A stretch of DNA of 64,000 nucleotides, taken from positions 30,194,001-30,258,000 of the forward strand of contig OX597842.1 of the NCBI GenBank assembly GCA_951406725.2, given 5' to 3'. Made by a program: the position numbers and the translations under genes. Source of the DNA: Octopus vulgaris. Lineage: Eukaryota. Below are positions 4,977-63,533 of the stretch, one piece after another (within the stretch, counting starts at the first letter, position 1; each line of letters begins with the position of its first letter). The notes beneath the pieces are model-generated. The model had not been told where the DNA came from, made no database searches, and worked only from the letters and a program-made list of their open reading frames with translations.

Positions 4977-5109
4977 AAAAAAAAAAAAAAAAAAATATAT
5001 ATAATATATATCATGTAAATAAAATAAAAGTTCATCGTTTAGAAATCTTATAAAATTATTCAAGTAAGAGAAGCCTTATAGTTAAAAAAGAGGAAACCAT
5101 ATTTACTTA

Positions 5110-5189
5110 TCCCTATGGCCATTTCAGGGGTGTATTATTATGTTTAAAGCACTAGGGTGCATTAAGATAATACCTCCTTCGTCAGGGGA
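5110..5189 (-). ncRNA. Minimal type I hammerhead ribozyme
   Basis: Minus strand reads uccc-CUGACGA-[agg..guauuau..gcac/gugc..auaauac..ccu]-GAAA-U-GGCC-A-UA-ggga: stem I 4 bp, long stem II, 1-bp stem III with palindromic loop, AUA triplet. Confidence 0.75.
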
Positions 5190-5301
5190 AAAAATACAGA
5201 AAGACAGACATCAGCGCGTACCAGGCTAGCACAATGTTGTGTGCTTTCCTATTGAAGCATTCATGCTCGGATAAGCCCAAAAGAAATATATGTATATATA
5301 T

Positions 5302-5995: not shown

Positions 5996-6740
5996 GTGGA
6001 TGCGCATTGGCCCAGTGGTTAGGGCAGCGGACTCGCGGTCGTAGGATCGCGGTTTCGATTCCCAGACCGGGCGTTGTGAGTGTTTATTGAGCGAAAACAC
6101 CCAAAGCTCCACGAGGCTCCGGCAGGGGATGGTGGTGATCCCTGCTGTACTCTTTCACCACAACTTTCTCTCACTCTTACTTCCTGTTTCTGTTGTACCT
6201 GTATTTCAAAGGGCTGGCCTTGTCACTCTCTGTGTCACGCTGAATATCCCCGAGAACTACGTTAAGCGTACACGTGTCTGTGGAGTGCTCAGCCACTTGC
6301 ACATTAATTTCACGAGCAGGCTGTTCCGTTGATCGGATCAACCGGAACCCTCATCGTCGTAACCGACGGAGTGCTTCCATCCATTTCAAGGGGCCGGCCT
6401 TGTCACTCTCTGTGTCACGCTGAATATCCCCGAGAACTACATTAAGGGTACAGGTGTCTGTGGAGTGCTCAGCCACTTACACGTTAATTTCACGAGCAGG
6501 CTGTTCCATTGATCGGATCAACCGGAACCCTCATCGTCATAACCGACGGAGTGTTTCCATCCATTTCAAGGGGCCGGCCTTGTCACTCTCTGTGTCACGC
6601 TGAATATCCCCGAGAACTACGTTAAGGGTACAGGTGTCTGTGGAGTGCTCAGCCACTTACACGTTAATTTCACGAGCAGGCTGTTCCGTTGATCAGATCA
6701 ACCGGAACCCTCGTCATCGTAACCGACGGAGTGCTTCCAT
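5996..6740 (+). mobile_element. SINE family B1 with triplicated 3' ~180 bp
   Basis: Head tggcccagtggttaggg...ggtttcgattccc. The segment atttcaa..ggccttgtcactc...gtgcttccat occurs three times (about 6200, 6383, 6562). Confidence 0.85.
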
Positions 6741-6833
6741 ATCCATATAATCTTGTTCTTTTGCTAAGCAATTTTACAAATTTTATTTATATTATTTTAA
6801 TTCATTTTGTTTCTTTACTCTTTTATTTTGCAG

Positions 6834-8348
6834 GTGAGAGCCTTATTCTACCAGAATTACCGTGAAGTGAAGGGCACTTTTAACCATGAACTAGGAAAGA
6901 AGGAAAGTCATGCATTCACGTTGCATCCAGTGAAGAATAGTAGTTTCGTAATACGTTTGGCATTGCATTTCAAAGACGATGAAATTAAATGGTTGAAAAG
7001 AAAAGCAGACACCTTGAGAAATGAGCTGGAAATGGTCATGAGGGGAATGACTTCAAAACAGCTGAAGCGTCTGTCAATGCCTATGATGAAATATCTTCAC
7101 AATATTGAATATTTTAAAAGAAAACATGAACCGAAGAAGGCCTCTGTCAAATTTTGGTATGATACTGGTGATGACACAGCACAATGGGAGCATATTGAAA
7201 TGGAGTCAATTTATTCCATGGCAAATATTCATCAGGCACCGAAACAGAAGCTGAGTGTGAAAAAACATGATGAAACCGTACAGAATGCTGTCAGAGCTCT
7301 CCTTAACCATTATTGGGAAGGAGTAGATAATATCAAGTTTAAGAAGTTTCTCCGAGCCTATCGTTACATGTCACCTATCCAAGGGGTACAACATCTACTA
7401 CAAGTCTACTTATTGCAACGAAAGACTAGAAATGGTTATTACAATGGCACATTTATGGCCTCGCAGCGTCTACTGCCTCTGAAGTTTACTGAAGAAGCTG
7501 ACTTGTTTAAGCGCCATTTTGATATCAATACCAAATACAATAACAGCAATGGTGGTGGGCAGATGAAAGAAATCAATCTGATTATGCCAATTGCTGGAAA
7601 ATTAGAAGCATTTGTACGATTTACAGAGACACTAGAGAAGATCTTCAAAAGAACACTGGAGAACCTCAAAGTGATCCTTGTTATCTACAAAGATCCAGAA
7701 GGAGCCTGGGTCAAACAAATCGCTATGATGAAACGTTTAGCATCTCAGTACCCTTCCATGAAACTAGAAATAACATTTTTGACTGGAGATTTTGCTCGTG
7801 GGGTGGCATTGCAGCATGGCATGAAGAACTGCAGTAATGACTCCCTTCTCCTTTTTATTGATATCGATATGGCCATCACAGAGACATTTCTACATCGAGT
7901 ACGAGAGAACACAATATATGGCAAGCAAGTGTATTTTCCAGTTTATTTCAGCCAGTTTGATCCTGAATCTATTTGCTACAAACCAAATTGTAAGAAGAAC
8001 CATTACTTATTTGGCAAAGATGACGGCTTTTGGAGATATTTCGGTTTTGGTATGGTGTCCATCTATAAAAAAGACTTTCTGGAAGTGGGTGGGTATGACA
8101 CAAAAATTGAAGGATGGGGCAAAGAGGACATAGATTTCTATGAACTATGCCTCAGGTCTAACCTGACAGCAGTTCGGGCACCTGATTTGTCACTTATACA
8201 CGTTTACCACCCAAAATTCTGTTCACATGATTTGAATGATGAACAGTACCAAATGTGTCTAGATTCAAAAAGCGGTATCTTTGGGTCTCTATATCAAGAG
8301 GCTAGGGCTATCTACAGATTACCAGAAATATTAAATAAATATAAATAA
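6834..8348 (+). CDS. CHSY1: CHSY1-like terminal exon (GT7-like GalNAc-transferase domain)
   Basis: Polypyrimidine tract plus cag at 6831-6833; phase-0 join to VRALFYQNY. Contains TLHPVK, FIDID (DxD), VYFPVYFSQF, GFWRYFGFGM and GGYDTKIEGWGKEDID; stop TAA at 8348. Confidence 0.92.
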   Translation: MRALFYQNYREVKGTFNHELGKKESHAFTLHPVKNSSFVIRLALHFKDDEIKWLKRKADTLRNELEMVMRGMTSKQLKRLSMPMMKYLHNIEYFKRKHEPKKASVKFWYDTGDDTAQWEHIEMESIYSMANIHQAPKQKLSVKKHDETVQNAVRALLNHYWEGVDNIKFKKFLRAYRYMSPIQGVQHLLQVYLLQRKTRNGYYNGTFMASQRLLPLKFTEEADLFKRHFDINTKYNNSNGGGQMKEINLIMPIAGKLEAFVRFTETLEKIFKRTLENLKVILVIYKDPEGAWVKQIAMMKRLASQYPSMKLEITFLTGDFARGVALQHGMKNCSNDSLLLFIDIDMAITETFLHRVRENTIYGKQVYFPVYFSQFDPESICYKPNCKKNHYLFGKDDGFWRYFGFGMVSIYKKDFLEVGGYDTKIEGWGKEDIDFYELCLRSNLTAVRAPDLSLIHVYHPKFCSHDLNDEQYQMCLDSKSGIFGSLYQEARAIYRLPEILNKYK

Positions 8349-12061: not shown

Positions 12062-12580
12062 TATATTTATACACGATGTGCTTCTTTCAGTTTCCGTCCA
12101 CTCACAAGGCTTTGGTCAGCCCGAGGCTATAGTAGAAGACACTTGCCCAAAGTTCCACGCAGTGGGACTGAACTCGGAACCATGTGGTTGGTAAGCAAGC
12201 TACTTACCACACAGCCACTCCTGCACCTATATACATATATATATACAATGGGCTTCTTTCAGTTTCCGTCCACCAAATCCACTCACAAGCCTCTGGTCGG
12301 CCTGAGGCTATAGTAGAAGACACTTGCCCAAGGTGCCACACAGTGGGACTGAACCCGGAACCATGTGGCTGGTAAGCAAGCTACTTACCACACAGCCACT
12401 CCTGCACTTATATATATACATACGACAGGCTTCTTTCAGTTTCCGTCTACCAAATCCACTCACAAGGCTTTGGTCAGCCCGAGGCTATAGTAGAAGACAT
12501 TTGCCCAATGTGCCACGCAGTGGGAATGAACCCGGAACCATGTGGTTGGGAAGCAAGCTTCTCCCCACAGAGCTACGCCT
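11765..12580 (-). mobile_element. SINE family A with three tandem head modules
   Basis: One tail (11765-11960), a (CA)n tract, then ~170-bp head units at about 12080, 12251 and 12424. Confidence 0.8.
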
Positions 12581-12691
12581 ACACTGATATAAACTATATT
12601 TCAAAACTATAACGTCAGATCACTGTCGGCTTTTTCTCACCTGCATTAGAAGGCATTGCAATATTCAAATTTATTGAAATCCAAAAATAAA

Positions 12692-18919: not shown

Positions 18920-19813
18920 TCTTTACTCTTTTACTTGTTTCAGTCATTTGACTGTGGCCATGCTGGAGCACCGCCTTTAATCGAGCAACTCGACCCCGGG
19001 ACTTATTCTTTTTGTAAGCCCAGTACTTATTCTATCGGCCTCTTTTGCCGAACCGTTAAGTGACGGAGACATAAACACACCAGCAATGCTAGGGGGACAA
19101 ACACAGACACACAAACAAACACACATACATATATACGACAGGCTTCTTTCAGTTTCCGTCTACCAAATCCACTCACAAGGCATTGGTCGGCCCAAGGCTA
19201 TAGCAGAAGACACTTGCCCAAGATGCCACACAGTGGGACTGAACCCGGAACCATGTGGTTGGTAAGCAAGCTACTTACCACACAGCCACTCCTACACCTT
19301 TAATATATATGACAGGCTTCTTTCAGTTTCCGTCGACCAAATCCACTCACAAGGCATTGGTCGGCCCGGGGCTATAGCAGAAGACACTTGCCCAAAATGC
19401 CATGCAGTGGGACTGAACCCGGAACCATGTGGTTGGTTAGCAAGCTACTTACCACACAGCCACTCCTGTGCCTATATATATACGACAGGCTTCTTTCAGT
19501 TTCCGTCTACAAAATTCACTCACAAGGCATTGGTCGGCCCGGGGCTATAGCAGAAGACACTTTCCCAAGATGCCACGCAGTGGGACTGAACCCGGAACCA
19601 TGTAGTTGGTAAGCAAGCTACTTACCACACAGCCACTTCTACACCTTTAATATATATGACAGGCTTCTTTCAGTTTCCGTCGACCAAATCCACTCACAAG
19701 GCATTGGTCGGCCCGGGGCTATAGCAGAAGACACTTGCCCAAGATGCCACGCAGTGGGACTGAACCCGGAACCATGTGGTTGTTTAGCAAGCTACTTACC
19801 ACACAGCCACTCC
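18920..19813 (-). mobile_element. SINE family A with four tandem head modules
   Basis: One tail plus ~173-bp units at about 19137, 19311, 19484 and 19658. Confidence 0.85.
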
Positions 19814-20118: not shown

Positions 20119-20218
20119 NNNNNNNNNNNNNNNNNNNNNNNNNNNNNNNNNNNNNNNNNNNNNNNNNNNNNNNNNNNNNNNNNNNNNNNNNNNNNNNNNN
20201 NNNNNNNNNNNNNNNNNN
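20119..20218. other. Assembly gap (100 N)
   Basis: Run of N. Confidence 1.
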
Positions 20219-20238
20219 AGAAAGTGATAGCAAGTATC

Positions 20239-20267
20239 CTAAAACACTGTATACTTGCACAAAACAT
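20239..20267 (-). CDS. Candidate terminal exon of the ANK-RING gene (DVLCKYTVF*)
   Basis: Acceptor tgtttcatttcag; phase-1 entry matches the micro-exons; in-frame TAG at 20241-20239. Confidence 0.5.
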
Positions 20268-20691
20268 CTGAAATGAAACACAAATGTTCATACACAGATT
20301 ATTGCAAAGGAAAAAATATCTGAAATGGTATATAAGAAATGATATTCAAGAATATATAATCAAGGTGGTGATATAGATAACAATGAGATGAGAGAAAAGT
20401 GAATGTGTCTCATTATGGGGAGAAAATCGCTTCAGGATTTATATTTTATCTTTTTTTCTATATTTTCCTTATCGTGAGGGACCTTTTTCCTATGTCTCAT
20501 GATTACATATTTCAATAAAAATCCCTTTATTGTATATTCTTTCATTTGTAGGTAGTGAATAGAATTACTTTTATCGCTCACCATTTGAAAGAAATATAAG
20601 AATGGAACCTGTTCTCAGTCATTCACACAAATAATATATCTCAGGTGAAGGTAAAATTTATAGAAATCAATTACAGTTATTTTATACTCAC

Positions 20692-21345
20692 CAACAGACT
20701 CTACTTTTTCTTTACACTTTGGACATTCTGAAATAAGAATTGGAAATTAAGAATGGAACCTGTTCTCAGTCATTCACACAAATAATATATTTCAGGTGAA
20801 GGTAAAATTTATAGAAATCAATTACAGTTATTTTATACTCACCAACAGACTCTACTTTTTCTTTACACTTTGGACATTCTGAAATAAGAATTGGAAATTA
20901 AGAATGGAACCTGTTCTCAGTCATTCACACAAATAATATATTTCAGGTGAAGGTAAAATTTATAGAAATCAATTACAGTTATTTTATACTCACCAACAGA
21001 CTCTACTTTTCTTTACACTTTGGACATTCTGAAATAAGAATTGGAAATTAAGAATGGAACCTGTTCTCAGTCATTCACACAAATAATATATTTCAGGTGA
21101 AGGTAAAATTTATAGAAATCAATTACAGTTATTTTATACTCACCAACAGACTCTACTTTTTCTTTACACTTTGAACATTCTGAAATAAGAATTGGAAATT
21201 GAGAATGGAACCTGTTCTCAGTCATTCACACAAATAATATATCTCAGGTGAAGGTAAAATTTATAGAAATCAATTACAGTTATTTTATACTCACCAACAG
21301 ATTCTGCAACCGTCTGGACTGCTTTTTCTTCAGGCTTTGGACACA
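20692..21345 (-). CDS. Micro-exon array 2 of the ANK-RING gene: 21345-21295, 21179-21144, 21028-20994 (35 nt), 20878-20843, 20727-20692
   Basis: Each exon is flanked by cttatttcag and gtgagt, with 115-nt introns. Products: VCPKPEEKAVQTVAESV, ECSKCKEKVESV, ECPKCKEK*, and ECPKCKEKVESV twice. Confidence 0.75.
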
Positions 21346-21679
21346 CTGAAATAAGCATTTCAAAGTTTTATACTTCATAGTAAAATTTGTTTGTGTCTTT
21401 TAATAATCTATATTCCATTATTGTAAGGCATTCATATCATCAATAGTCAATTGGTGACCACTATGCTTTCGGTCAACACTTTCTAAGCTGTTACTACATA
21501 ATAGTTCAATATTTAGAACCACAACAAAATAGGCAAACCTTTCGAAATCTCATCTTTCTCTTAAGACATCCTATATACTAATCTAACAATTCTGAAATTC
21601 TCTCACTTAGTTATCACTTCATAACACTCTTTTTCTCTTAGTTTTGTCGTTTCTTTCTTATGTCTTTGCTGGACAAGTT

Positions 21680-21912
21680 TAACGCAAAATTTCACATTGG
21701 TTATTTGTTCCTGCCCATTAGAAAATTGCAGACTACAGCCTACAAATGACCACAAAAGCACAAATTTCACAACTTTTGAAGTAAACGCAGTGGTGTCACC
21801 CAGCACACTGCCTCATGAAAGTCACTGCTAGCTCTCACTGTGCACGCAACAGTGTGCTGCCATCTGTTGGCATGCTACAGAACTAGTCCATGAACTTTCT
21901 GATACCACCTTG
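21680..21912 (-). mobile_element. 5' remnant of a mariner-type transposon (duplicate at ~25142-25374)
   Basis: TIR-like caaggtggtatcagaaagttcatggact, then EQITNVKFCVKL resembling the mariner N-terminal EQRxxIKFCVKL. Confidence 0.6.
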
Positions 21913-22927
21913 GAGCAACGACCAGGCTTCATGTTCGAATTAAAACGAATCAACTCAAAAGTAAAACCAAAAGGTGAAAGAGTCAGAAAACAATGTCTCT
22001 TTTAGCAGTAATCACATCTAAAAGCTAACGAGTGTGAGTATAAAATGTCTAAAAGGATGGCAAACCTTATAACAAGTGTCAATCATATATAGTTACGAAC
22101 AAGGAGTTGCATGTTCAAATCTCACTGGAACGCATATTTTATTCCTATCTGTATATTTTATGTTAATACCAATACTTTGTTTAATGTAAACATGCTCAGA
22201 GTTCAATACTCAATTTAACGAAAGTTATTTGAATATCAATATTTTTAAACAGATTTAATATTATATTGTTTTCAATTTATATCTAAAATATATATTCTAA
22301 CCAGAGACATTCTGGGTATATAACCCCCCCCCCCCCCAAGAAACACCATGTCTACACAGGTGGAACGGAAAATGGCAACAGGTGTCCTCAAACACTCTAC
22401 ACTTGCATAAAAACCCCATTAACTACATATAACTGTTCATCCATATAATTTGCAGTGCAAATACCTGAAAAGGCACAAAAAAACTGCTTCTCAAGAATCT
22501 AGGATATTTCTCACAACCTTCTTCTAGATATCAATCAAAGTTTCCTCACTCGTTTAATGACCCCTCTCTGAATCTGTCACATTGCAATGGGGTGAAAACC
22601 CAGCTACAAACAAATTTGAGGACACAAAATTTATACCTCTGTACAAGGGTTTGACAGACACAAACTGTCTTTCCGATGTTGTACTTAATAGAAAAATAAC
22701 ATTACAAGGAATATGTAACACTACTCACTCCCCATTCCACCACAAATGATAATTGAGATCAACTAATTGAAAATGCCTCTACAATGTTTTATAAATTACA
22801 TCTAATTAGTGTTGGTGAAAATGGTTGGGTCAATTTTCTGCCACTCATTGTGTGATACTAATGTTATTTCATATTCTTTCATTGAATATCTCATCAATAA
22901 CTTATCAGCTGTTAATATTTGTTGAAA

Positions 22928-24171
22928 ATGTCTCAAAAGAAATCGATTCTTAAAGCTCAAAGGTCTCAAATCACTGCATTATCAAGTGAAGGATTCTCTC
23001 AATTTGAAATTGCAAGAAAACTGAAATGCTTGAGAAAAGATTTCCATCAAAAGTACAATGCGATAAATTATTTCAAAAATTGTAAAGGACAAGGTCGCAG
23101 AACGTGTACAACCACGAGGGAAGACAGGTTGCTGAAGAGGACATCACTGGCGGATGGGAAAAAACACCTCTTTTGACAAAGCTGCTGAGTTTTGGGTGGC
23201 AACAAAAAAAGATATATCAACTTCAGTGAGAAGAAGAAGAAGGTTATTAGAAGTTGAGTTCAAAGGATGTAAGGCCAAAAAGAAGCTGTTACTGTCTGAG
23301 GGGAACATGACGAAGCAATTGTGTTGGGCAAAAGAGCATGAAGATTGGACTGCTGATGATTGGGCTAAAATTGTTTGGTCCGATGAAAGTAACTTTGATA
23401 TATGTTCTCCACATTCAATTCCACCACTTTACTAGGCATAATTGAAGTTCTTACACTTGTACAAATTTTTTTATTTGTTACCAGAAATGATCAGTAATTT
23501 TTTGTTTATCTTCAGATCTTTGGAAACTCAGGAGCTGTTTATGTTCACTGTAAAGTAGGGGAGGTTTATCATCCTGGATGTGTGGTCCCAACAGTCAAAT
23601 TTGGATTGGGAAGTGCAATTGTTTGGGGTTGCATGTTGTCTTAAGGCCCTGGAATGTTGTTCACTTGTAAGGGCAGAATGAATGCCCACACTTACACCAA
23701 CATGTTAGATCAAGTTTATCAACCTTCTTTAGCTAAAATCTTCAATGATAACACCCCAGATGGCAAAATCATTCAACAAAATATTTCTGCATGCCACACA
23801 TCCAGAGTCTCAATGGGTTGGTGAGGAGAAAGGGATGAGGGTGATGAAATGGCCTCCTTAGTCTCCAGACCTCAATCCCATTGAATATGTGGTGACACTT
23901 AGGTGCAAAAATGCTCTTGAAAAAGCGAATTAGAAACCAAAATTCATGGAGAGTGGCAGAAAACTGACCCAGCCACTTGTGCCAACATAGTCTCAAGTAT
24001 GCAAAATTGCCTAAAAGCACTTATAAAAGCAAAAGGAGGACACATCAAATACTAATTATTGATGGGATCACCTCTAGAATGTTCATCAGACTGTTTTCAA
24101 TTATTAAGTAAATGAGTTTCAATCATATTCCCTATTTTATCATAGCTGCTCTATAATTTTGGCCAAGGTTG
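22928..24171 (+). pseudogene. Degenerate Tc1-family transposase with right terminus
   Basis: HTH GFSQFEIARKLKC, TTTREDRLL, WAKIVWSDESNF, PTVKFG..VWGCM, WPP*SPDLNPIE and KAKGGHIKY*. Contains stops and frameshifts; ends ..ggccaaggttg-TA. Left TIR not found. Confidence 0.88.
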
Positions 24172-24454
24172 TATATATTTATCAACAAGGATTTGTGTGT
24201 TTGAGTCACACTGGGAACTCATCTTTTATTTCTATCTCTGTATTGTATGCTAGCATCAATACTTTGTTTAAGTATAAATAAAAATCCCTTTATTCTATAT
24301 TCTTTCATTTGTAGGTAGTGAATAGAATTACTTTTATCGCTAACCATTTGAAAGAAATATAAGAATGGAACCTGTTCTCAGTCATTCACACAAATAATAT
24401 ATCTCAGGTGAAGGTAAAATTTATAGAAATTTATTACAGTTATTTTATACTCAC

Positions 24455-24807
24455 CAACAGACTCTACTTTTTCTTTACACTTTGAACATTCTAAAATAAG
24501 AATTGGAAATTAAGAATGGAACCTGTTCTCAGTCATTCACACAAATAATATATCTCAGGTGAAGGTAAAATTTATAGAAATTTATTACAGTTATTTTATA
24601 CTCACCAACAGACTCTACTTTTTCTTTACACTTTGAACATTCTGAAATAAGAATTGGAAATTAATAATGGAACCTGTTCTCAGACATTCACACAAATAAT
24701 ATATTTCAGGTGAAGGTAAAATTTATAGAAATCAATTACAGTTATTTTATACTCACCAACAGATTCTGCAACCGTCTGGACTGCTTTTTCTTCAGACTTT
24801 GGACACA
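24455..24807 (-). CDS. Micro-exon array 1 of the ANK-RING gene: 24807-24757, 24641-24606, 24490-24455
   Basis: AG/GTGAGT-flanked exons of 51, 36 and 36 nt, phase 1-1. Products VCPKSEEKAVQTVAESV and ECSKCKEKVESV twice; in phase with the RING exon donor. Confidence 0.78.
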
Positions 24808-26388
24808 CTGAAATAAGCATTTCAAAGTTTTATACTTCATAGTAAAATTTCTTTGTCTCTTTTAATAATCTATATTCCATTTTTGTAAGGCATTCATATC
24901 ATCAATAGTCAATTGGTGACCACTATGCTTTCGGTCAACACTTTCTAAGCTGTTACTACATAATAGTTCAATATTTAGAACCACAACAAAATAGGCAAAC
25001 CTTTCGAAATCTCATCTTTCTCTTAAGACATCCTATATACTAATCTAACAATTCTGAAATTCTCTCACTTAGTTATCACTTCATAACACTCTTTTTCTCT
25101 TAGTTTTGTCGTTTCTTTCTTATGTCTTTGCTGGACAAGTTTAACGCAAAATTTCACATTGGTTATTTGTTCCTGCCCATTAGAAAATTGCAGACTACAG
25201 CCTACAAATGACCACAAAAGCACAAATTTCACAACTTTTGAAGTAAACGCAGTGGTGTCACCCAGCACACTGCCTCATGAAAGTCACTGCTAGCTCTCAC
25301 TGTGCGCGCAACGGTGTGCTGCCATCTGTTGGCATGCTACAGAACTAGTCCATGAACTTTCTGATACCACCTTGGAGCAACGACCAGGCTTCATGTTCGA
25401 ATTAAAACGAATCAACTCAAAAGTAAAACCAAAAGGTGAAAGAGTCAGAAAACAATGTCTCTTTTAGCAGTAATCACATCTAAAAGCTAACGAGTGTGAG
25501 TATAAAATGTCTAAAAGGATGGCAAACCTTATAACAAGTGTCAATCATATATAGTTACGAACAAGGAGTTGCATGTTCAAATCTCACTGGAACGCATATT
25601 TTATTCCTATCTGTATATTTTATGTTAATACCAATACTTTGTTTAAATGTAAACATGCTCAGAGTTCAATACTCAATTTAACGAAAGTTATTTGAATATC
25701 AATATTTTTAAACAGATTTAATATTATATTGTTTTCAATTTATATCTAAAATATATATTCTAACCAGAGACATTCTGGGTATATACCCCCCCCCCCCCAA
25801 GAAACACCATGTCTACACAGGTGGAACAGAAAATGGTAACAGGTGTCCTCAAACACTGTACACTTGCATAAAAACCCCATTAACTACATATAACTGTTCA
25901 TCCATATAATTTGCAGTGCAAATACCTGAAAAGGCACAAAAAAACTGCTTCTCAAGAATCTAGGATATTTCTCACAACCTTCTTCTAGACATCAATCAAA
26001 GTTTCCTCACTCGTTTAATGACCCCTCTCTGAATCTGTCACATTGCAATGGGGTGAAAACCCAGCTACAAACAAATTTGAGGACACAAAATTTATACCTC
26101 TGTACAAGGGTTTGACAGACACAAACTGTCTTTCCGATGTTGTACTTAATAGAAAAATAACATTACAAGGAATATGTAACACTACTCACTCCCCATTCCA
26201 CCACAAATGATAATTGAGATCAACTAATTGAAAATGCCTCTACAATGTTTTATAAATTACATCTAATTAGTGTTGGTGAAAATGGTTGGGTCAATTTTCT
26301 GCCACTCATTGTGTGATACTAATGTTATTTCATATTTTTTCATTGAATATCTCATCAATAACTTATCAGCTGTTAATATTTGTTGAAA

Positions 26389-27632
26389 ATGTCTCAAAAG
26401 AAATCGATTCTTAAAGCTCAAAGGTCTCAAATCACTGCATTATCAAGTGAAGGATTCTCTCAATTTGAAATTGCAAGAAAACTGAAATGCTTGAGAAAAG
26501 ATTTCCATCAAAAGGTACAATGCGATAAATTATTTCAAAAATTGTAAAGGACAAGGTCGCAGAACGTGTACAACCATGAGGGAAGACAGGTTGCTGAAGA
26601 GGACATCACTGGCGGATGGGAAAAACACCTCTTTTGACGAAGCTGCTGAGTTTTGGGTGGCAACAAAAAAAGATATATCAACTTCAGTGAGAAGAAGAAG
26701 AAGGTTATTAGAAGTTGAGTTCAAAGGATGTAAGGCCAAAAAGAAGCTGTTACTGTCTGAGGGGAACATGACGAAGCAATTGTGTTGGGCAAAAGAGCAT
26801 GAAGATTGGACTGCTGATGATTGGGCTAAAATTGTTTGGTCCGATGAAAGTAACTTTGATATATGTTCTCCACATTCAATTCCACCACTTTACTAGGCAT
26901 AATTGAAGTTCTTACACTTGTACAAATTTTTTTATTTGTTACCAAAAATGATCAGTAATTTTTTGTTTATCTTCAGATCTTTGGAAACTCAGGAGGTGTT
27001 TATGTTCACTGTAAAGTAGGGGAGGTTTATCATCCTGGATGTGTGGTCCCAACAGTCAAATTTGGATTGGGAAGTGCAATTGTTTGGGGTTGCATGTTGT
27101 CTTAAGGCCCTGGAATGTTGTTCACTTGTAAGGGCAGAATGAATGCCCACACTTACACCAACATGTTAGATCAAGTTTATCAACCTTCTTTAGCTAAAAT
27201 CTTCAATGATAACACCCCAGATGGCAAAATCATTCAACAAAATATTTCTGCATGCCACACATCCAGAGTCTCAATGGGTTGGTGAGGAGAAAGGGATGAG
27301 GGTGATGAAATGGCCTCCTTAGTCTCCAGACCTCAATCCCATTGAATATGTGGTGACACTTAGGTGCAAAAATGCTCTTGAAAAAGCGAATTAGAAACCA
27401 AAATTCATGGAGAGTGGCAGAAAACTGACCCAGCCACTTGTGCCAACATAGTCTCAAGTATGCAAAAATGCCTAAAAGCACTTATAAAAGCAAAAGGAGG
27501 ACACATCAAATACTAATTATTGATGGGATCAACTCTAGAATGTTCATCAGACTATTTTCAATTATTAAGTAAATGAGTTTCAATCATATTCCCTATTTTA
27601 TCATAGCTGCTCTATAATTTTGGCCAAGGTTG
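26389..27632 (+). pseudogene. Second copy of the Tc1 relic (from the segmental duplication)
   Basis: Near-identical to 22928-24171, including shared stop codons. Confidence 0.88.
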
Positions 27633-28476
27633 TATATATTTATCAACAAGGATTTGTGTGTTTGAGTCACACTGGGAACTCATCTTTTATTTCTATCTCT
27701 GTATCGTATGCTAGCATCAATACTTTGTTTAAATATAAATACATGTTCACAGTTCAATACTAATTTAGTACTGAATGAAAGAAATTTATTGTTCAATATT
27801 CTTATACTGAGAGATTCTGTGTATACACCCCAACAAAAGATAACTCCTATCAAACATTAGACTGATGTAATTGTTTGATATCTTCATAATATGATAAATC
27901 ATGATGAATTTGTGCAGTTCAACTTTGTAAAATATGTTGAAACTACCCCTGACATCATTTCCCAATTACAACATTTTTTATACACACCCAGGCTGATTGA
28001 TTTAACCGTCAAACTCTGTAAACTTGGTCCTTAAACTCTCAGTTGAGATTTTATCCTTGAATCTCCCACTTTACCAAAGCTGACTCTGATGTTCTTGTAA
28101 GTAACATTCTCTTTAATTATCAGCTCTCCATGATACTGATAAATCATTAATCACCTCTAATCACTCACAATTGAAAGTAAAAGGTTTACAAATAAAACAT
28201 TGGGGATTTGGTGATATTTCAGTTAGTTACCATTTATCTTATATTATCATTCGTTAGTCTTATGTTGCAAAGCACAGTCCTTTTGAAGTGTGATCAATCT
28301 TCTAATTGGATAAAGACAACGTTTAGTGGATGTAGTGATAGATATACTATCACAAAGAAAGGACCCCATTTATGCCAGGTAAGGGCAGATCTGGGTCTCC
28401 ACTACAATATGAAGTGCATTATTCCATACAAGAAAGTTAATGAGACAACAGACAGATCAAGAAAGAATGTTCTTAC

Positions 28477-28619
28477 CAAATCCACTTTTGCTGCGTATGT
28501 GTTGTCGACAGATGGGGCATTGCTTAAATGTCATTTGAGAACAGCAATTCTGACAACAAATAGTATGTCGACATGGATGGAGTGTGACAGTAGCCTTTTT
28601 CTCTTGACACCACCAACAC
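28477..28619 (-). CDS. ANK-RING gene exon 8: C3HC4 RING finger (MIB/IAP-like)
   Basis: ttccacag acceptor, gtaaga donor (phase 1). Encodes CWWC..LHPCRH..CCQNC..QCPIC. Confidence 0.88.
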
Positions 28620-29617
28620 CTGTGGAACAAAATATTAACACATCCCATCATTAACATTCATTTATAATAAAATATTTCGTTGTGGACATGTTTAGAGTAC
28701 AGAATATTAAGGGGCACAACAGTAACCAGCAAGAGTAAATCATAAATTCTTCTGTAAACAATTACATACAAGCAGGTTTGTGTGTATACAAGTGTCACAT
28801 TAACATACACATACAAGGGTGGGCTGAAAATATCAAAGGCTGACTAAGGTGCAGCCTTCCAACATGCCATCCCAGTCAAACAGTCCAATCCATGCCAGCA
28901 TGGACAACAGACGTTAAATGATGATGATGATGATGATGATGACATACGCATTGTTAGTGTGTGTTTTAGGTTATTTTCACATGAAAGCGTACATGACAAC
29001 TGATTGAGTCAGAGAAGAGAGAGAGAAAAAAATTGTTGGTAGACAGATAAATCCTATTTACTTCTAAATAGCAATTTCAAAATGTGTTCGTTCACTTTAT
29101 TATTTAGTACTACATTTTCATGGAGGTCACCGAACTCTAAAATAGTCAGGGATGGATGGTGAGGTATATCTGTCAACACAAGCAATCATGTGAATGTCAT
29201 CAAAATAGTGTTTTTCGTTTGATCCACTAACAACTGTATTTTCTGTTTATTGTTCTTATTATTGTTGTGTGGTCTTAAGGCTGCAAGCTGGCAGAATCAT
29301 TAGCACACGGAGCAAAATGCTTTCTGGCATTTCGTCTGCCTTTACATGCTGAGTTCAAATTCAGCTGCGGTTGACTTTACCTTGCTGTTGATAAAATAAG
29401 TACCAGTTGAAAACTGGGGATGTTGTAATTGACTTATCCCCTCCCTGACCTTGCTGGCCTTGTGCCAGAATTGGAAATCATTATTGTTGTCTTGAGTCAA
29501 GACACTAATGACGGAATAATACATTGGGAGAATTCAAACTAAATAAACATATAAACATGATTATATACAAAAGAGAAAATGTCCTGGTTTATCTTGTCGT
29601 TGCCAGTGAATACTTAC

Positions 29618-29793
29618 AGTGATTGTAAAAATGTTTTTAATTTTTCTTTCAAATGTTGATTTTCTATGCAGTCCAATGGGGTCACTTTCTCATCATTACG
29701 ATGGTATAAGCTGGCTCCATGGCTGGCAAGGTAACCCCCAACTACTATTCCAGAGAGCCTCCTATCCCCTTCCAGTTGGAGCTCTTCGCAGCA
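29618..29793 (-). CDS. ANK-RING gene exon 7
   Basis: tttgcag/gtaagt; YLASHGASLYHRNDEKVTPLD, a Mind bomb-like last ankyrin; phase 0 to 2. Confidence 0.85.
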
Positions 29794-30798
29794 CTGCAAA
29801 TGATGAAATATAAAACGATGAGTAGAATATTACACAAATATATATTGTAGATAAACAAATCATGTCAAATGTAGGAAATATAATAGAACAAGTATCACAA
29901 ATAACAGAACACAACAAACCAACAAGAACCTATCTTTACAACAGGCTTGATAAAGCCAACTGGCCAGAACAAAAGAAATACTTATAGAAGAGTATTGTAT
30001 ATATAAATATAACACAACAACATAACAACAATGGCAAGCTACATTTTGTTACACAAAGGCCATTTTAATTACCATGGGGGTCGTGTGATGGTCTATGGTC
30101 ACTCAAGATTTTCTGTAATTCCTTGTGGAGATTTTAACTGGTCGCAACAAGAAATATTTTTTTAACTACATATATACTCCTACTTGAATTTGTTTACCAT
30201 CTGCAAAACTGCCATCAAAACTCAGATTTTTGACATCTTCAGATCTGCATCTATGAAAGCAGTCACCCATATTTTCCTAATGGTAATTTCGATAATCCAA
30301 ATATTGATTGGGAAACCTTTCACTGGTCACAAAGTGCAACTCATTTCCATAACAAACAATGAACAGAGAACACCAAGAATATAATAATTTCTTCAGACAC
30401 AGCAACAAAACCAACACCAGACAGACATATCCAAGCCTTTCAATAATGTTTCCAAAATTTATAAAGAAACATTTTTGGCTGATGAAGTGAAGTAAAGATT
30501 TGTGTGGTGGTTGAGGCAACACACCAACACGTTATAGTCAAGAAATTGTTGAAACTGTTAGTCTGATAGACAATTCCTATAATAATGGGTCGTTGACTGG
30601 TAGAGTAGCTTCTTCTCACCAAAGTAGACATTACAACAATACACAGGTGACCATCAACTGTCTGAAATAGTCACACATCTGTAGTGACCGTTACATATTT
30701 GGGAATCAAAGTGTTGCTTAAATTCTGCAACAACAGATAATAAACACCATCAAATCTACCAGTGGATAGATGCTGATGTCTTTCAAACAAACAAACAA

Positions 30799-32276: not shown

Positions 32277-32486
32277 CTCATCTAAAATGGGAATATGTTC
32301 CTTTTCAGAATGAAATTCCTGTTTCTCTGCTGCAATATGCAAACAATTATTGCCATCCTTGTCGACGGCATTTATGTTTGCACCGCACGTGGTAAGTTTG
32401 TGGACTATTCCGATGTGGGCTGCATACACGGCTTCCAGTAAGGGTGTTCTTTTATCATTATTCTCAATATCCAGTTTCACTGAATC
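32277..32486 (-). CDS. ANK-RING gene exon 6 (ankyrin repeats)
   Basis: cacaaag/gtaagt, 210 nt; RTPLLEAV..GANINAVDKDGNNCLHIAA. Confidence 0.88.
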
Positions 32487-35177: not shown

Positions 35178-35214
35178 CTGGGCCAGCATTGAAGCCACCA
35201 CATCATGTTGTTGC
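35178..35214 (-). CDS. ANK-RING gene exon 5 (37-nt micro-exon, KQQHDVVASMLAQ)
   Basis: ctttctataactttcag acceptor, gttagt donor. It bridges phase 2 to phase 0 and completes an ankyrin helix. Confidence 0.8.
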
Positions 35215-36934: not shown

Positions 36935-37293
36935 TTTCGAACTGCCAGATGGAGAGGGGTGTTACCCTCTTCGTTCACCTTATTGGCATCGATGCCATTC
37001 TGTTGCAGGAGAAGTTCAACAACTTCCGTGCGTCCATGAGCAGAGGCAATATGAAGAGGGGTGTGACCTTGCTTGGTCACAGCACAGATGTCAGAGCCAT
37101 TCTGTTGCAGGAGAAGTTCAACAACGTCCTTGCTTCCATATTGACAGGCAAGATGGAGAGCTGTGAAACCTTTGTTCTCCACAGCATTAACATCGATGCC
37201 ATTCTGTTGCAGGAGAAGTTCAACAATGTTTATTTGTCCATAGCGACAGGCATAATATAGAGCTGTCTGACCCCTATTATTTCCCTGATTAAC
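36935..37293 (-). CDS. ANK-RING gene exon 4 (3.5 ankyrin repeats)
   Basis: tttttag/gtaagt; contains GQTALYYAC, GFTALHLAC, GHTPLHIAS and GNTPLHLAV. Confidence 0.92.
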
Positions 37294-37740: not shown

Positions 37741-37897
37741 CTGTAAATTGTTATTTTCTTTGCTATTTAACAGGACTTTGACTACATCTTCATATTTATT
37801 TACCACAGCCCGATGTAGAGGTGTGTTGCCAAATGAGTTCTGCTTATTAACATTTGCTCCACTGGAGACTAAGAAGGCCACAACATCCGTTTCGTGG
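37741..37897 (-). CDS. ANK-RING gene exon 3
   Basis: cctttcag/gtcagc; VVAFLVSSGANVNKQNSFGNTPLHRAV. Confidence 0.9.
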
Positions 37898-39291: not shown

Positions 39292-42200
39292 CACGACACA
39301 CACACACACACACACACTCTCTCTCTCTCTCAAACACATGCATATACATTTGCACAAGCACATAGTAATTAATATATAAGCGTACACACACATACAAACG
39401 ACACACACACACACACACTCTCTCTCTCTCTCTCAAACACATGCATATACATTTGCACAAGCACATAGTAATTAATATATAAGCGTACACACACATACAA
39501 ACGACACACACACACACACACTCTCTCTCTCTCTCTCTCAAACACATGCATATACATTTGCACAAGCACATAGTAATTAATATATAAGCGTACACACACA
39601 TACAAACGACACACACACACACACACTCTCTCTCTCTCTCTCTCAAACACATGCATATACATTTGCACAAGCACATAGTAATTAATATATAAGCGTACAC
39701 ACACATACAAACGACACACACACACACTCTCTCTCCCTCTCTCTCTCTCAAACACATGCATATACATTTGCACAAGCACATAGTAATTAATATATAAGCG
39801 TACACACACACACACAAACGACACACACACACACTCTCTCCCTCTCTCTCTCTCAAACACATGCATATACATTTGCACAAGCACATAGTAATTAATATAT
39901 AAGCGTACACACACATACAAACGACACACACACACACTCTCTCTCTCTCTCTCTCAAACACATGCATATACATTTGCACAAGCACATAGTAATTAATATA
40001 TAAGCGTACACACACATACAAACGACACACACACACTCTCTCTCTCTCTCTCTCTCTCTCTCAAACACATGCATATACATTTGCACAAGCACATAGTAAT
40101 TAATATATAAGCGTACACACACATACAAACGACACACACACACACACTCTCTCTCTCTCTCTCAAACACATGCATATACATTTGCACAAGCACATAGTAA
40201 TTAATATATAAGCGTACACACACACACAAACGACACACACACACACTCTCTCTCTCTCTCTCTCTCAAACACATGCATATACATTTGCACAAGCACATAG
40301 TAATTAATATATAAGCGTACACACACACACAAACGACACACACACACACTCTCTCTCTCTCTCTCTCTCAAACACATGCATATACATTTGCACAAGCACA
40401 TAGTAATTAATATATAAGCGTACACACACATACAAACGACACACACACACTCTCTCTCTCTCTCTCTCTCTCAAACACATGCATATACATTTGCACAAGA
40501 ACATAGTAATTAATATATAAGCGTACACACACATACAAACGACACACACACACACTCTCTCTCTCTCTCTCTCTCAAACACATGCATATACATTTGCACA
40601 AGCACATAGTAATTAATATATAAGCGTACACACACATACAAACGACACACACACACTCTCTCTCTCTCTCTCCCAAACACATGCATATACATTTGCACAA
40701 GCACATAGTAATTAATATATAAGCGTACACACACATACAAACGACACACACACACACACTCTCTCTCTCTCTCTCTCTCTCAAACACATGCATATACATT
40801 TGCACAAGCACATAGTAATTAATATATAAGCATACACACACATACAAACGACACACACACACTCTCTCTCTCTCTCTCCCAAACACATGCATATACATTT
40901 GCACAAGCACATAGTAATTAATATATAAGCGTACACACACATACAAACGACACACACACACACACACACACTCTCTCTCTCTCTCAAACACATGCATATA
41001 CATTTGCACAAGCACATAGTAATTAATATATAAGCGTACACACACACACACACACACTCTCTCTCTCTCTCAAACACATGCATATACATTTGCACAAGCA
41101 CATAGTAATTAATATATAAGCGTACACACACATACAAACGACACACACACACACACACTCTCTCTCTCTCTCAAACACATGCATATACATTTGCACGAAC
41201 ACATAGTAATTAATATATAAGCGTACACACACATACAAACGACACACACACACACTCTCTCTCTCTCTCTCTCTCAAACACATGCATATACATTTGCACA
41301 AGCACATAGAAATTAATATATAAGCGTACACACACACACACACACTCTCTCTCTCTCTCTCAAACACATGCATATACATTTGCACAAGCAGATAGTAATT
41401 AATATATAAGCGTACACACACATACAAACGACACACACACACACACACACTCTCTCTCTCTCTCTCAAACACATGCATATACATTTGCACAAGCACATAG
41501 TAATTAATATATAAGCGTACACACACATACAAACGACACACACACACACACACACTCTCTCTCTCTCTCTCTCAAACACATGCATATACATTTGCACAAG
41601 CACATAGTAATTAATATATAAGCGTACACACACATCCAAACGACACACACACACACTCTCTCTCTCTCTCTCAAACACATGCATATACATTTGCACAAGC
41701 ACATAGTAATTAATATATAAGCGTACACACACATACAAACGACACACACACACACTCTCTCTCTCTCTCTCTCAAACACATGCATATACATTTGCACATG
41801 CACATAGTAATTAATATATAAGCGTACACACACATACAAACGACACACACACACACGCTCTCTCTCTCTCTCAAACACATGCATATACATTTGCACAAGC
41901 ACATAGTAATTAATATATAAGCGTACACACACATACAAACGACACACACACACACACACACACTCTCTCTCTCTCTCAAACACATGCATATACATTTGCA
42001 CAAGCACATAGTAATTAATATATAAGCGTACACACACACACACGCACTCTCTCTCTCTCTCAAACACATGCATATACATTTGCACAAGCACATAGTAATT
42101 AATATATAAGCGTACACACACACATACACTCACACTCTCTCTCTCTCTCTCAAACACATGCATATACATTTGCACAAGCACATAGTAATTAATATATAAG

Positions 42201-44322: not shown

Positions 44323-44477
44323 TTCTCCACTGCATAATGCAATGCTGTCCACTTCTTGTCTTCGTCACTGATGTTGAGATCAGCGCCAGATTTTGTCAAT
44401 AAGGTTATTAACTTTTTATTGCCTTGTTCACAGGCAGCCATGAGAACCGTAACACCTTTTGAATTTCTGTTGTTGAC
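44323..44477 (-). CDS. ANK-RING gene exon 2
   Basis: ctcttcag/gtaagg; VNNRNSKGVTVLMAAC..GADLNISDEDKKWTALHYAV. Confidence 0.9.
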
Positions 44478-45013: not shown

Positions 45014-48000
45014 ATGTTCCCCCTTCCCATAACCATCATCGCCATGGTCCTCTATGCCCACTCCCCAAAACCATCATCGCCATACATAAAAGAGCGATCG
45101 CATTTATCGTTAACCCCACTCGCTTCAAAATATCTAAAGAATACGCACAGATCATGAATGGCTAAAGTGAATCGTTCAACCTCGCTACGACTACCTTCTT
45201 TCTTGCACTTATCCTTACTCTTTCTCTATTCTTCAATTTCCATCTCATTGTATTGTCCCTCATTCTTTCAGTATTCCCTCATTACCCTGTCTAGCTCAAA
45301 CATTTTTTTTTCGTTTAGACTTGTCTCCAGGTTCATAGCCACTCTGATTTTTCAATTTTTCAATTTTTCGTTTAGTATTGTCTCCCGATTCATACAAACC
45401 CATTTGCTAGCTCACGATTAACAGAACCTCTTTACTCAGCTACGGTGTTATATTAGCTATCAATAATGATATTCCCTCTGATTTTTCTGATTTTCAAACC
45501 TATTTATCTAATGTTTATTTATCGACAATGCCGTCCCCAGTCAAATTCCCTCACACCGCTTATTGTCACGTGTCCCTTGACCTCTCTCTCTAACTAACCC
45601 TATCTCTCTCTCGCTATGTTCCCCCCTTCCCATAACCATCATCGCCACGGTCCTCTATGCCCACTCCCCAAAACCATCATCGCCATACATAAAAGAGCGA
45701 TCGCATTTATCGTTAACCCCACTCGCTTCAAAATATCTAAAGAATACGCACAGATCATGAATGGCTAAAGTGAATCGTTCAACCTCGCTACGACTACCTT
45801 CTTTCTTGCACTTATCCTTACTCTTTCTCTATTCTTCAATTTCCATCTCATTGTATTGTCCCTCATTCTTTCAGTATTCCCTCATTACCCTGTCTAGCTC
45901 AAACATTTTTTTTCGTTTAGACTTGTCTCCAGGTTCATAGCCACTCTGATTTTTCAATTTTTCGTTTAGTATTGTCTCCCGATTCATACAAACCCATTTG
46001 CTAGCTCACGATTAACAGAACCTCTTTACTCAGCTACGGTGTTATATTAGCTATCAATAATGATATTCCCTCTGATTTTTCTGATTTTCAAACCTATTTA
46101 TCTAATGTTTATTTATCGACAATGCCGTCCCCAGTCAAATTCCCTCACACCGCTTATTGTCACGTGTCCCTTGACCTCTCTCTCTAACTAACCCTATCTC
46201 TCTCTCGCTATGTTCCCCCCTTCCCATAACCATCATCGCCATGGTCCTCTATGCCCACTCCCCAAAACCATCATCGCCATACATAAAAGAGCGATCGCAT
46301 TTATCGTTAACCCCACTCGCTTCAAAATATCTAAAGAATACGCACAGATCATGAATGGCTAAAGTGAATCGTTCAACCTCGCTACGACTACCTTCTTTCT
46401 TGCACTTATCCTTACTCTTTCTCTATTCTTCAATTTCCATCTCATTGTATTGTCCCTCATTCTTTCAGTATTCCCTCATTACCCTGTCTAGCTCAAACAT
46501 TTTTTTTTTTTTTTTTCGTTTAGACTTGTCTCCAGGTTCATAGCCACTCTGATTTTTCAATTTTTCAATTTTTCAATTTTTCAATTTTTCAATTTTTCGT
46601 TTAGTATTGTCTCCCGATTCATACAAACCCATTTGCTAGCTCACGATTAACAGAACCTCTTTACTCAGCTACGGTGTTATATTAGCTATCAATAATGATA
46701 TTCCCTCTGATTTTTCTGATTTTCAAACCTATTTATCTAATGTTTATTTATCGACAATGCCGTCCCCAGTCAAATTCCCTCACACCGCTTATTGTCACGT
46801 GTCCCTTGACCTCTCTCTCTAACTAACCCTATCTCTCTCTCGCTATGTTCCCCCTTCCCATAACCATCATCGCCACGGTCCTCTATGCCCACTCCCCAAA
46901 ACCATCATCGCCATACATAAAAGAGCGATCGCATTTATCGTTAACCCCACTCGCTTCAAAATATCTAAAGAATACGCACAGATCATGAATGGCTAAAGTG
47001 AATCGTTCAACCTCGCTACGACTACCTTCTTTCTTGCACTTATCCTTACTCTTTCTCTATTCTTCAATTTCCATCTCATTGTATTGTCCCTCATTCTTTC
47101 AGTATTCCCTCATTACCCTGTCTAGCTCAAACATTTTTTTTCGTTTAGACTTGTCTCCAGGTTCATAGCCACTCTGATTTTTCAATTTTTCAATTTTTCA
47201 ATTTTTCAATTTTTCGTTTAGTATTGTCTCCCGATTCATACTAACCCATTTGCTAGCTCACGATTAACAGAACCTCTTTACTCAGCTACGGTGTTATATT
47301 AGCTATCAATAATGATATTCCCTCTGATTTTTCTGATTTTCAAACCTATTTATCTAATGTTTATTTATCGACAATGCCGTCCCCAGTCAAATTCCCTCAC
47401 ACCGCTTATTGTCACGTGTCCCTTGACCTCTCTCTCTAACTAACCCTATCTCTCTCTCGCTATGTTCCCCCCTTCCCATAACCATCATCGCCATGGTCCT
47501 CTATGCCCACTCCCCAAAACCATCATCGCCATACATAAAAGAGCGATCGCATTTATCGTTAACCCCACTCGCTTCAAAATATCTAAAGAATACGCACAGA
47601 TCATGAATGGCTAAAGTGAATCGTTCAACCTCGCTACGACTACCTTCTTTCTTGCACTTATCCTTACTCTTTCTCTATTCTTCAATTTCCATCTCATTGT
47701 ATTGTCCCTCATTCTTTCAGTATTCCCTCATTACCCTGTCTAGCTCAAACATTTTTTTTTTTTTTTTCGTTTAGACTTGTCTCCAGGTTCATAGCCACTC
47801 TGATTTTTCAATTTTTCAATTTTTCAATTTTTCAATTTTTCAATTTTTCTTTTTGTTTAGTATTGTCTCCCGATTCATACAAACCCATTTGCTAGCTCAC
47901 GATTAACAGAACCTCTTTACTCAGCTACGGTGTTATATTAGCTATCAATAATGATATTCCCTCTGATTTTTCTGATTTTCAAACCTATTTATCTAATGTT

Positions 48001-63449: not shown

Positions 63450-63533
63450 TTGATCAGGATTTTCTTTGATAAGTCGTTTCACATCTTCAAAGTCTCCATT
63501 CTGAATCTTGCTTATAATCTTATTTACATCCAT
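63450..63533 (-). CDS. ANK-RING gene first visible coding exon (MDVNKIISKIQNGDFEDVKRLIKENPDQ)
   Basis: Pyrimidine tract and aag acceptor 2 nt before the ATG; gtaagt donor. The phase-0 join to VNNRNSKG gives a typical N-cap ankyrin. Confidence 0.75.

Follow-up and report, generated by a model that had tools for sequence, protein, structure and literature searches.

A stretch of 64,000 nucleotides of Octopus vulgaris DNA (assembly GCA_951406725.2, contig OX597842.1, positions 30,194,001 to 30,258,000 of the forward strand), hereafter the window, carries on its minus strand a gene for a predicted ankyrin-RING ligase, and the RING exon of this gene is followed by two satellite arrays whose units each hold a tiny exon, or cassette. 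Here we report that these cassettes are spliced exons and that the cassette unit is, as judged by homology, a reduced copy of exon 1 of a death domain (DD), a domain that follows the cassettes in related Octopus genes. We consider it moderately probable that satellite cassettes derived in this way form a variably spliced linker between the RING and the DD and provide it with sites resembling those bound by LC8.

Cassette arrays and their splicing

Re-parsing of the minus strand confirmed the eight phase 1-1 micro-exons, arranged as 3 + 5, that an initial annotation of the window had described. Each has an acceptor and a donor; the donor is GTGAGT in all eight, and the acceptor is cttatttcag in seven and cttattttag in one. 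The first array comprises cassette 1 (24757..24807, 51 nt, VCPKSEEKAVQTVAESV), which is of the QT type and lacks CxxC, cassette 2 (24606..24641, 36 nt, ECSKCKEKVESV), which is of the CxxC type and lacks QT, and cassette 3 (24455..24490, 36 nt), which has the cttattttag acceptor. The second comprises cassette 4 (21295..21345, 51 nt, VCPKPEEKAVQTVAESV, QT type) and cassette 5 (21144..21179, 36 nt), both included in the annotated protein P0022, followed by cassette 6 (20994..21028), cassette 7 (20843..20878, 36 nt) and cassette 8 (20692..20727, 36 nt). Cassette 6 is 35 nt long, one A short in an A run, and is frameshifted, either truly or by assembly error. The six introns within the arrays are each 115 nt long. 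Tandem Repeats Finder reported a period of 151 with 4.7 and 2.7 copies and 98% and 96% matches; the 151-bp satellite proposed earlier is thus an accurate description of the 36-nt units but not of the 51-nt units, whose period is 166.

A single 3.39-kb tandem duplication, which the initial annotation missed, underlies both arrays. Copy A (24354..27741) holds an intron with a Tc1-like remnant together with the first array, copy B (20894..24280) is 98.85% identical to it, and an AATAAA lies downstream of each array. The copies are 1.15% apart and each is 98.9-99.2% identical to a nearby paralog (L013), a range possible for alleles, and an assembly gap adjoins them; the 3 + 5 layout could therefore be an artefact in which two haplotypes were set in tandem. 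We regard this as improbable, because the junction between the copies is unique, being a short AT-rich stretch common to the post-array DNA and intron 1, with no gap and no long repeat. Such an artefact would in any case alter only the cassette count, cassettes being family-wide. The remnant in the duplicated intron segment is of a Tc1/mariner transposase (26495-26896 and 22916-23435 on the plus strand; Pfam HTH_Tnp_Tc3_2, below cut-off).

Among the 24 sequencing runs listed as matching, 18 are presumed to be RNA and none is recorded as such, a tally without bearing on expression. Splicing was assessed in four presumed RNA runs, drawn from four studies, whose assembled contigs were aligned to positions 24300-29850 at 90% likeness, and 15 of 54 joints were covered. 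The control intron before the RING exon was spliced out in all four runs. The RING exon was joined to the 51-nt cassette (joint 24807/28477, CT..AC ends) in two of the four, at depths of 18.8 (X2) and 462.6 (X9), and the same joint appears in X1 as a loose end. Joints between 51-nt cassettes were present in three runs (X1, X2 and X10), and joints from a 36-nt to a 51-nt cassette in one (X9). The X2 contig with the RING-to-cassette joint has 0 differences from the window RING exon over 141 nt; the RING exons of 16 of 17 paralogs differ from that of the window by 8 bases or more, and the remaining one (L013) by 1 base. Some features of these data weigh against assigning the joints to the window gene: the X2 contig shows 10 differences in the exon preceding the RING, contigs guessed to be RNA and aligned at 90% likeness mix paralogs, and the joints involving 36-nt cassettes come solely from the run of a second organism code. 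In addition, the 15 of 54 joints covered include no 51-to-36, 36-to-36 or last-cassette exit joint, which does not show that such joints are absent. Transcripts that only read through the RING donor, with no cassette junction, were the result that the initial annotation named as contrary to its proposal, and this is not what appears: junctions from RING to cassette and from cassette to cassette are both seen, and the cassettes are spliced exons.

It had also been suggested that any subset of cassettes can be skipped without a frameshift. This holds for seven of the cassettes but not for the 35-nt unit, whose skipping the reading frame needs. That cassettes are indeed skipped in combinations is supported by paralog gene models. 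In one O. sinensis paralog, 21 of the 22 numbered models cover 15 of the 16 subsets of four cassettes and contain all 15 forward junction types (counted by eye), and isoforms differing by whole cassettes occur in six further genes (four in O. sinensis and two in O. bimaculoides). Numbered public gene models are usually built on RNA alignments; near-identical cassettes can mis-map, however, which could inflate the number of modelled isoforms. The cassettes are thus tiny symmetric exons and, to judge by skipping in the paralog models, alternatively spliced, as is characteristic of micro-exon genes.

An expanded gene family in Octopus

The ankyrin, RING and cassette exons of the window gene are homologous to an Octopus family in which ankyrin repeats, RING and DD succeed one another. 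A search of the same genome with the repeat unit gave 95 matches among the best 40 of 266 candidates, located on C29, C27 and C31. From 35 fetched 10-kb loci and the window, one of which (L037) yielded no cassette, 119 cassettes were parsed in 35 loci: the length was divisible by 3 in 112, an AG acceptor was present in 117 and a GT donor in 116, and all three features occurred together in 107. The AG count is partly built in, as the parser demanded a near-match to the acceptor. None of the 112 in-frame cassettes contains an in-frame stop. Genes on C29 and C27 have 1-8 cassettes, which supports, for paralogs, the earlier proposal that copy number is variable, and 60 of the 72 spacers there measure 115 nt. 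Members without any cassette, in which the RING is joined straight to the DD, also exist. The RING exon has at least 41 genome matches, 18 of them at 83% identity or above, and the second DD exon has at least 40 (best 40 of 54 candidates). Public databases name this expanded family MIB2-like, which, as discussed below, is a misnomer.

The closest paralog, L013 (G000:C29:29198500-29208499), lies 1 Mb away and is 98.7-99.3% identical to window positions 20219-30500. Its first cassette is frameshifted and its DD exons are intact; it may be a recent duplicate or the other haplotype. Damaged RINGs occur in several other paralogs, with a frameshift in L011, one ligand lost in L032 and an in-frame deletion plus lost ligands in L033, and the RING pattern is also failed by the proteins P0233, P0243 and P0244.

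All named relatives are from Octopus (O. vulgaris, O. sinensis and O. bimaculoides; 19, 10 and 18 named matches plus 10 clusters). No named relative was found beyond Octopus, which is weak evidence, as the word-based searches were confined to longer proteins. Further matches of one search, to multi-DD proteins 24-44% identical, were left out of this naming. The literature searched, from which subscription papers and supplements were outside the scope, yielded no description of the family, of the origin of its cassettes from a DD exon or of skippable exons that each carry a single LC8-like motif, and the available excerpts of PMC13218726 and PMC11431876 mention neither the family nor the cassettes. 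The exons themselves are already present in automatic annotations of paralogs, and tandem exon duplication and the skipping of symmetric exons are known phenomena.

Origin of the cassettes

When the flanking DNA of both is included, cassette 1 agrees with DD exon 1 at 340 of 474 bases (72%, E 6e-66), and matches of the same type between cassettes and DD exon 1 are found within the C29 loci L013, L017, L019 and L024 (70-72% over 458-516 bp). On C31, where the spacers are 0.8-3 kb long, the upstream flanks align at 64-83% in seven of eight comparisons with DD exon 1. Without flanks, the cassette exon has 27.3 of 51 bases in common with type-B DD exon 1 versus 13.5 in shuffles, a value reached by 0 of 5000 shuffles, and 19-23 bases in common with three other DD-type exons. 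Exons of the 78-, 72-, 51- and 36-nt size classes are all in phase 1-1, and the 36-nt form equals the 51-nt form minus 15 bases. Finally, in the 115-nt intron a donor-side stretch of about 105 bases is fused directly to the 10 bases that end the acceptor side. Because the homology extends into the flanks, the size classes share a uniform phase and the 115-nt intron is a fusion of this kind, the cassette unit is, on comparative sequence grounds, a shrunken duplicate of the first DD exon. This is a traceable conversion of a folded-domain exon into a repeat of short-motif exons, since one genome still contains the exon of origin, its 78/72/51/36-nt forms and the intron at different degrees of shortening.

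Position of the cassettes relative to the death domain

The cassettes had been taken for a variable C-terminal tail. In relatives, however, they lie between the RING and the DD and hence constitute a linker rather than a terminal segment. Pfam Death is above cut-off in all four paralog proteins scanned and absent from P0022. Of the 34 paralog loci, each fetched as 10 kb, 22 contained DD exon 1, eight had a degenerate 72-nt copy and four had neither; in one of the eight (L019), the DD exons were located farther along. Both DD exons were present in all five loci having the window's entire post-array intron.

The last exon proposed by the initial annotation (20267-20239), and with it the 543-aa protein, does not hold up in this comparison. 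The arithmetic of the coding sequence is correct (1321 + 282 + 29 = 1632, in frame), but the acceptor TTTCAG occurs only in the window; all 10 paralogs checked have TTTAAG or TTAAAG, and the stretch is intronic there. The proposed exon is thus probably intron. It belongs to a segment (20219..20691, minus strand, with AATAAA at 20531) that corresponds to the start of the intron leading to DD exon 1 in paralogs and that is 98% identical to L013 up to the edge of an assembly gap. This gap of 100 N (20119..20218) begins 20 bases past the end of the proposed exon and occupies the expected place of the two DD exons. Homology between the window and L013 (98.7-99.3%) is unbroken to the final base before the gap, and the DD exons of L013 lie about 0.6 kb and about 3.7 kb beyond that point.

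We think it likely that the DD exons of the window gene are hidden in the gap. The alternative, in which the window copy is a truncated or decaying paralog whose DD exons were truly deleted and whose transcripts terminate either through read-through into an intron or by use of the window-specific acceptor near 20268, seems to us unlikely, although it has several points in its favour. No DD exon was found in the window, where matches were at chance level (E 0.95 or worse), or nearby (best 40 of 54 candidates), a result that also weighs against the linker reading for this particular gene. Moreover, one cassette is frameshifted, the strong acceptor at 20268 is unique to the window, the public model P0022 terminates by read-through, AATAAA follows each array, and the DNA past the gap is unlike the 3' flanks of paralogs in gene orientation. 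Against decay stand the intact upstream open reading frame and the unbroken homology to the 99%-identical L013, given that a gap of unknown size can conceal DD exons. Read-through of any of the seven intact cassette donors adds 25 codons before a stop, and annotations in three species include forms of this kind that lack the DD (P0022, P0029, P0017 and P0018).

The best solved-structure matches of the family DD are to RIPK1 (E 9.3e-06), ankyrin-3 (4e-05) and TRADD (5.6e-04); such weak matches to the death domains of RIPK1, ankyrin and TRADD indicate fold and not orthology or partner. In an AlphaFold2 model of the paralog P0028, the ankyrin repeats and the DD are confident (DD predicted local distance difference test (pLDDT) about 75-91), and the pLDDT of the linker is 24-36. 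According to this model, the linker between the RING and the DD is probably unfolded; the RING pLDDT in the P0028 model is also low, however, so that low linker confidence is no proof of disorder.

An LC8-like core and patterns of selection

Across subfamilies the cassettes keep a core, K/R-x-[TVSI]-Q-T, that resembles the LC8-binding motif. In 18 representatives, the core has 12 matches in 599 linker residues versus 0 in 5651 other residues; it occurs in 8 of 11 linkers versus 0.09 in shuffles. Among 14 proteins found later, 12 contain 24 core matches, all between the RING and the DD. The core is retained in subfamilies that are less than 50% identical and in three species. Several paralog 8-mers, among them EDKGVQTD, ADKGVQTD, EDRCVQTE and EDKASQTE, satisfy all the position rules that we coded from PMC6607443. 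The validated ZFPM1 site has DKGVQT as its core (PMC6607443), and KGVQT is that of the LCA5 site, with CTKGVQTM validated and Kd 2.6-8.1 uM (PMC9481538); weak LC8 sites can also bind jointly, as in KANK1 (PMC12803091). The genome of O. vulgaris contains an LC8 gene, which starts at G000:C25:23627325 and encodes 89 aa. In the window, the motif of the 51-nt cassettes, EEKAVQTV, follows the rules at most positions (Q at 0, mid-sized residues at -1 and +1, a large residue at -3, a polar one at -4 and no internal proline); the 36-nt cassettes, which are without the QT core, do not follow them.

Several observations nevertheless count against a role in LC8 binding. The Val at +2 of EEKAVQTV fails the rule for a non-hydrophobic residue (P, D or E preferred), which several paralog cassettes pass, and in PMC6607443 Val at this position is disfavoured, several QTV peptides being among the non-binders. 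Look-alike LC8 motifs are known to give false predictions (PMC12057147). The core is kept in only 23 of 93 in-frame cassettes on C29 and C27, where 12 of 27 genes have no QT cassette at all. Furthermore, our motif pattern was written after viewing the linkers, and the cassettes are homologous, so that the counts given above are not independent. On the basis of the motifs, we put LC8 binding by the best paralog sites at about an even chance and consider that by the window motif doubtful.

The residues of the cassettes on C29 and C27 show no sign of purifying selection, which again weighs against a strong function in this subfamily: non-synonymous alleles number 39/110 and synonymous alleles 11/34 (p 0.84), with pairwise non-synonymous (pN) and synonymous (pS) values of 0.141 and 0.137. 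Alternatively, the cassettes could be real and variably spliced but merely tolerated by-products of exon duplication in a young family prone to repeats, forming a neutral linker for which nothing beyond reading frame and approximate length counts and whose QT core is left over from the DD helix that gave rise to it. The equal frequency of the two kinds of allele favours this explanation, as do the 7 of 119 cassettes that are out of frame, the 5 with broken splice sites, the many genes without a QT cassette or any cassette, and the K-x-L-Q that type-B DD exon 1 already has at the aligned place. The opposite is suggested by the three fixed size classes, which differ from 72 by multiples of 3, by the retention of the QT core described above, and by the finding that the motif rules are followed by 15 cassettes versus 0 of 31 72-nt exons. 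On balance we judge a neutral linker to be rather unlikely.

The cassette exons vary more than the introns (39/110 versus 51/246 alleles, p 0.004; 2.44 versus 1.21 tree events per site). We do not infer positive selection on the cassettes from this, because non-synonymous alleles are not above synonymous ones and homogenisation of, or constraint on, the introns explains the difference equally. In DD exon 1 (72 nt; 15 loci on C29 and C27, for example L013:2085-2156), non-synonymous alleles number 27/166 and synonymous alleles 0/41 (p 0.003). This pattern makes diversifying selection on the death domain possible; a surplus of amino-acid replacements is frequent in immune and cell-death signalling genes, and such a role would be in keeping with it. 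The RING exon is likewise without a purifying signal, and gene conversion is unaccounted for in this reading of DD exon 1.

CxxC cassettes

The initial annotation described the unit as a CxxC micro-exon and suggested that paired CxxC units might bind zinc. Several observations speak against CxxC as the essential feature of the unit. CxxC occurs in 36 of 98 cassettes on C29 and C27 and in 0 of 20 on C31, is absent from the 51-nt cassettes of the window, and is one base change from Ser/Phe codons at the same site. CxxC and Q seldom occur together in distinct 51-nt exons (3/17 versus 21/32, p 0.002; not independent). Judged from its distribution among cassettes, CxxC is a late and partial feature. 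That paired CxxC cassettes bind zinc and form a tunable metal-binding C-terminal tail is accordingly quite improbable in our view, the more so as the cassettes are not terminal in relatives. Some support for a zinc-binding tail comes from the presence of CxxC in five of the seven intact window cassettes, from the DD-less read-through forms annotated in three species, and from one type of paralog, considered next, in which a CxxC cassette restores the RING pattern.

In this paralog, L015 (G000:C29:21225200-21235199), an 18-nt deletion in the RING exon near 5078-5210 removes the last CxxC, and the deletion is common to the O. sinensis match; the proteins concerned are P0064, P0046, P0051 and P0057. 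Only two of 27 genes have a first cassette with CxxC, and the L015-type gene is one of them. When isoforms of this gene are compared with a RING consensus pattern, those with cassette A or B regain it and all four tested isoforms without them do not. It is suggestive only, but from the sequence the CxxC cassette may supply the missing last zinc ligands of the L015-type RING. The DNA of the type-2 RING resembles the start of the CxxC cassette over about 15 bases. The cassette CxxC may have been copied from the end of the RING, or it may have arisen by single base changes from common cassette codons; the two explain the data equally.

Proposed mechanism

On the homologies described above, we propose that DD exon 1 (72 nt, phase 1-1) was tandemly duplicated together with its flanking intron and that the copies shortened in frame, from 72 nt first to 51 nt and then to 36 nt; copies of 78 nt exist too. 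On C29, according to the homology, the spacer shrank to the 115-nt intron, giving rise to the 166/151-bp satellite, each unit of which comprises one complete intron and an exon. Units may then have been gained and lost by unequal exchange, as suggested by the 3.39-kb duplication and by a cassette number of 1-8 among the paralogs. Inclusion or skipping of the cassettes in combinations would yield a variable, probably unfolded linker between the RING and the DD, and read-through of a cassette donor would yield the DD-less form. Such a linker could set the reach of the ligase and its clustering relative to DD partners, with recruitment presumably mediated by the DD. The QT cassettes may act as weak LC8 (DYNLL) sites, so that splicing and copy number would together set how many LC8 dimers zip two chains, and the 36-nt CxxC cassettes, their QT core lost, may serve as spacers.

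A more far-reaching version of this mechanism, in which splicing and copy number let an Octopus-specific family of dozens of genes adjust how many LC8 sites lie between RING and death domain, and hence whether dimers or ladders form there, and in which a CxxC cassette completes the RING in at least one paralog and makes the ligase fold splice-dependent, is put forward tentatively. If LC8 binding is real, the family would provide a natural isoform series in which to study the control of a RING ligase by its number of LC8 sites.

Comparison with known systems

The micro-exon genes (MEGs) of Schistosoma and the MEG-like part of VAL-6 (PMC4350168) resemble the octopus cassettes in having small symmetric exons, expanded families, pools of near-identical proteins generated by splicing and raised non-synonymous rates. 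In MEGs, however, the coding sequence is mostly micro-exons and the products are secreted (PMC4350168), whereas in the octopus gene cassettes make up 282 of about 1600 coding nt (~18%) and accompany intracellular domains. Unlike those of MEGs, the octopus cassettes are homologous repeats that form a satellite together with their introns, stem from an exon that encodes a domain in the very gene that holds them, and are located in an intracellular ligase. The octopus gene thus works like the micro-exon part of a MEG or of VAL-6 but is not a MEG.

The LC8 clients ASCIZ/ATMIN, KANK1, LCA5 and ZFPM1 likewise have several QT-anchored motifs in a low-confidence linker (PMC6607443, PMC12803091 and PMC9481538), the octopus sites being predicted. 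The octopus family differs from these clients in having one motif per skippable exon, so that the number varies by splicing and by gene copy, an arrangement for which we found no precedent in the literature searched.

Mind bomb (MIB1/MIB2), the automatic name of many paralogs, shares with the octopus family ankyrin repeats followed by a C3HC4 RING (PMC5345843). At the N terminus, Mind bomb proteins carry MIB repeats and a ZZ finger with a Mib-HERC2 domain on either side, and they have two or three RINGs at the C terminus (PMC5345843). In contrast, Mib-HERC2, ZZ and MIB domains gave no Pfam match in any of five family proteins, the window gene begins with ankyrin repeats, and each of the five has a single RING stretch, followed by a death domain in four. 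A Mind bomb identity is rejected on these grounds. A molluscan expansion that also joins death domain and RING is that of the oyster inhibitor of apoptosis proteins (IAPs) of BIR-DD-RING type (PMC8917759), and IAPs are least expanded in Octopus (PMC8917759). Compared by domain layout and not by homology, the octopus family has ankyrin repeats instead of BIR, the RING before the DD, and a cassette linker.

Gene anatomy and other features of the window

Upstream of the cassettes, the gene has eight exons on the minus strand that sum to 1321 nt and end in phase 1 at 28477; their translation equals residues 1-440 of annotated P0022 (CAI9744132.1), and the reading frame is undamaged. The first coding exon, with the ATG, is at 63450..63533. 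It is followed by ankyrin exons 2 (44323..44477), 3 (37741..37897), 4, the largest (36935..37293), 5 (35178..35214) and 6 (32277..32486), by the exon preceding the RING (29618..29793) and by the RING (C3HC4) exon itself (28477..28619; Pfam zf-C3HC4_3, 39.6 bits versus a cut-off of 27). P0022 matches the C3HC4 pattern, with eight zinc ligands in RING spacing, and ligase activity is predicted. Read-through of the RING donor would meet a stop at 28459-28457.

Intron 1 contains a satellite (45019-56500) whose 19 units, about 594-639 bp long and 98-100% identical, alternate in a higher-order pattern, and, antisense to the gene, an open 1037-aa frame of the long interspersed nuclear element type with endonuclease, reverse transcriptase and a weak PHD match (56723-59836, plus strand). 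In intron 2 lies a 103-bp satellite of 27 copies with 90% matches (39298-42042). Short interspersed elements form tandem arrays of 3-4 copies with periods of 174-180 bp at 6203-6740, 12097-12592 and 19129-19813. Two exons resembling chondroitin sulfate synthase, with Fringe-like and CHGN matches (134-694 and 6801-8348, plus strand), belong to a gene arranged tail to tail with the ankyrin-RING gene.

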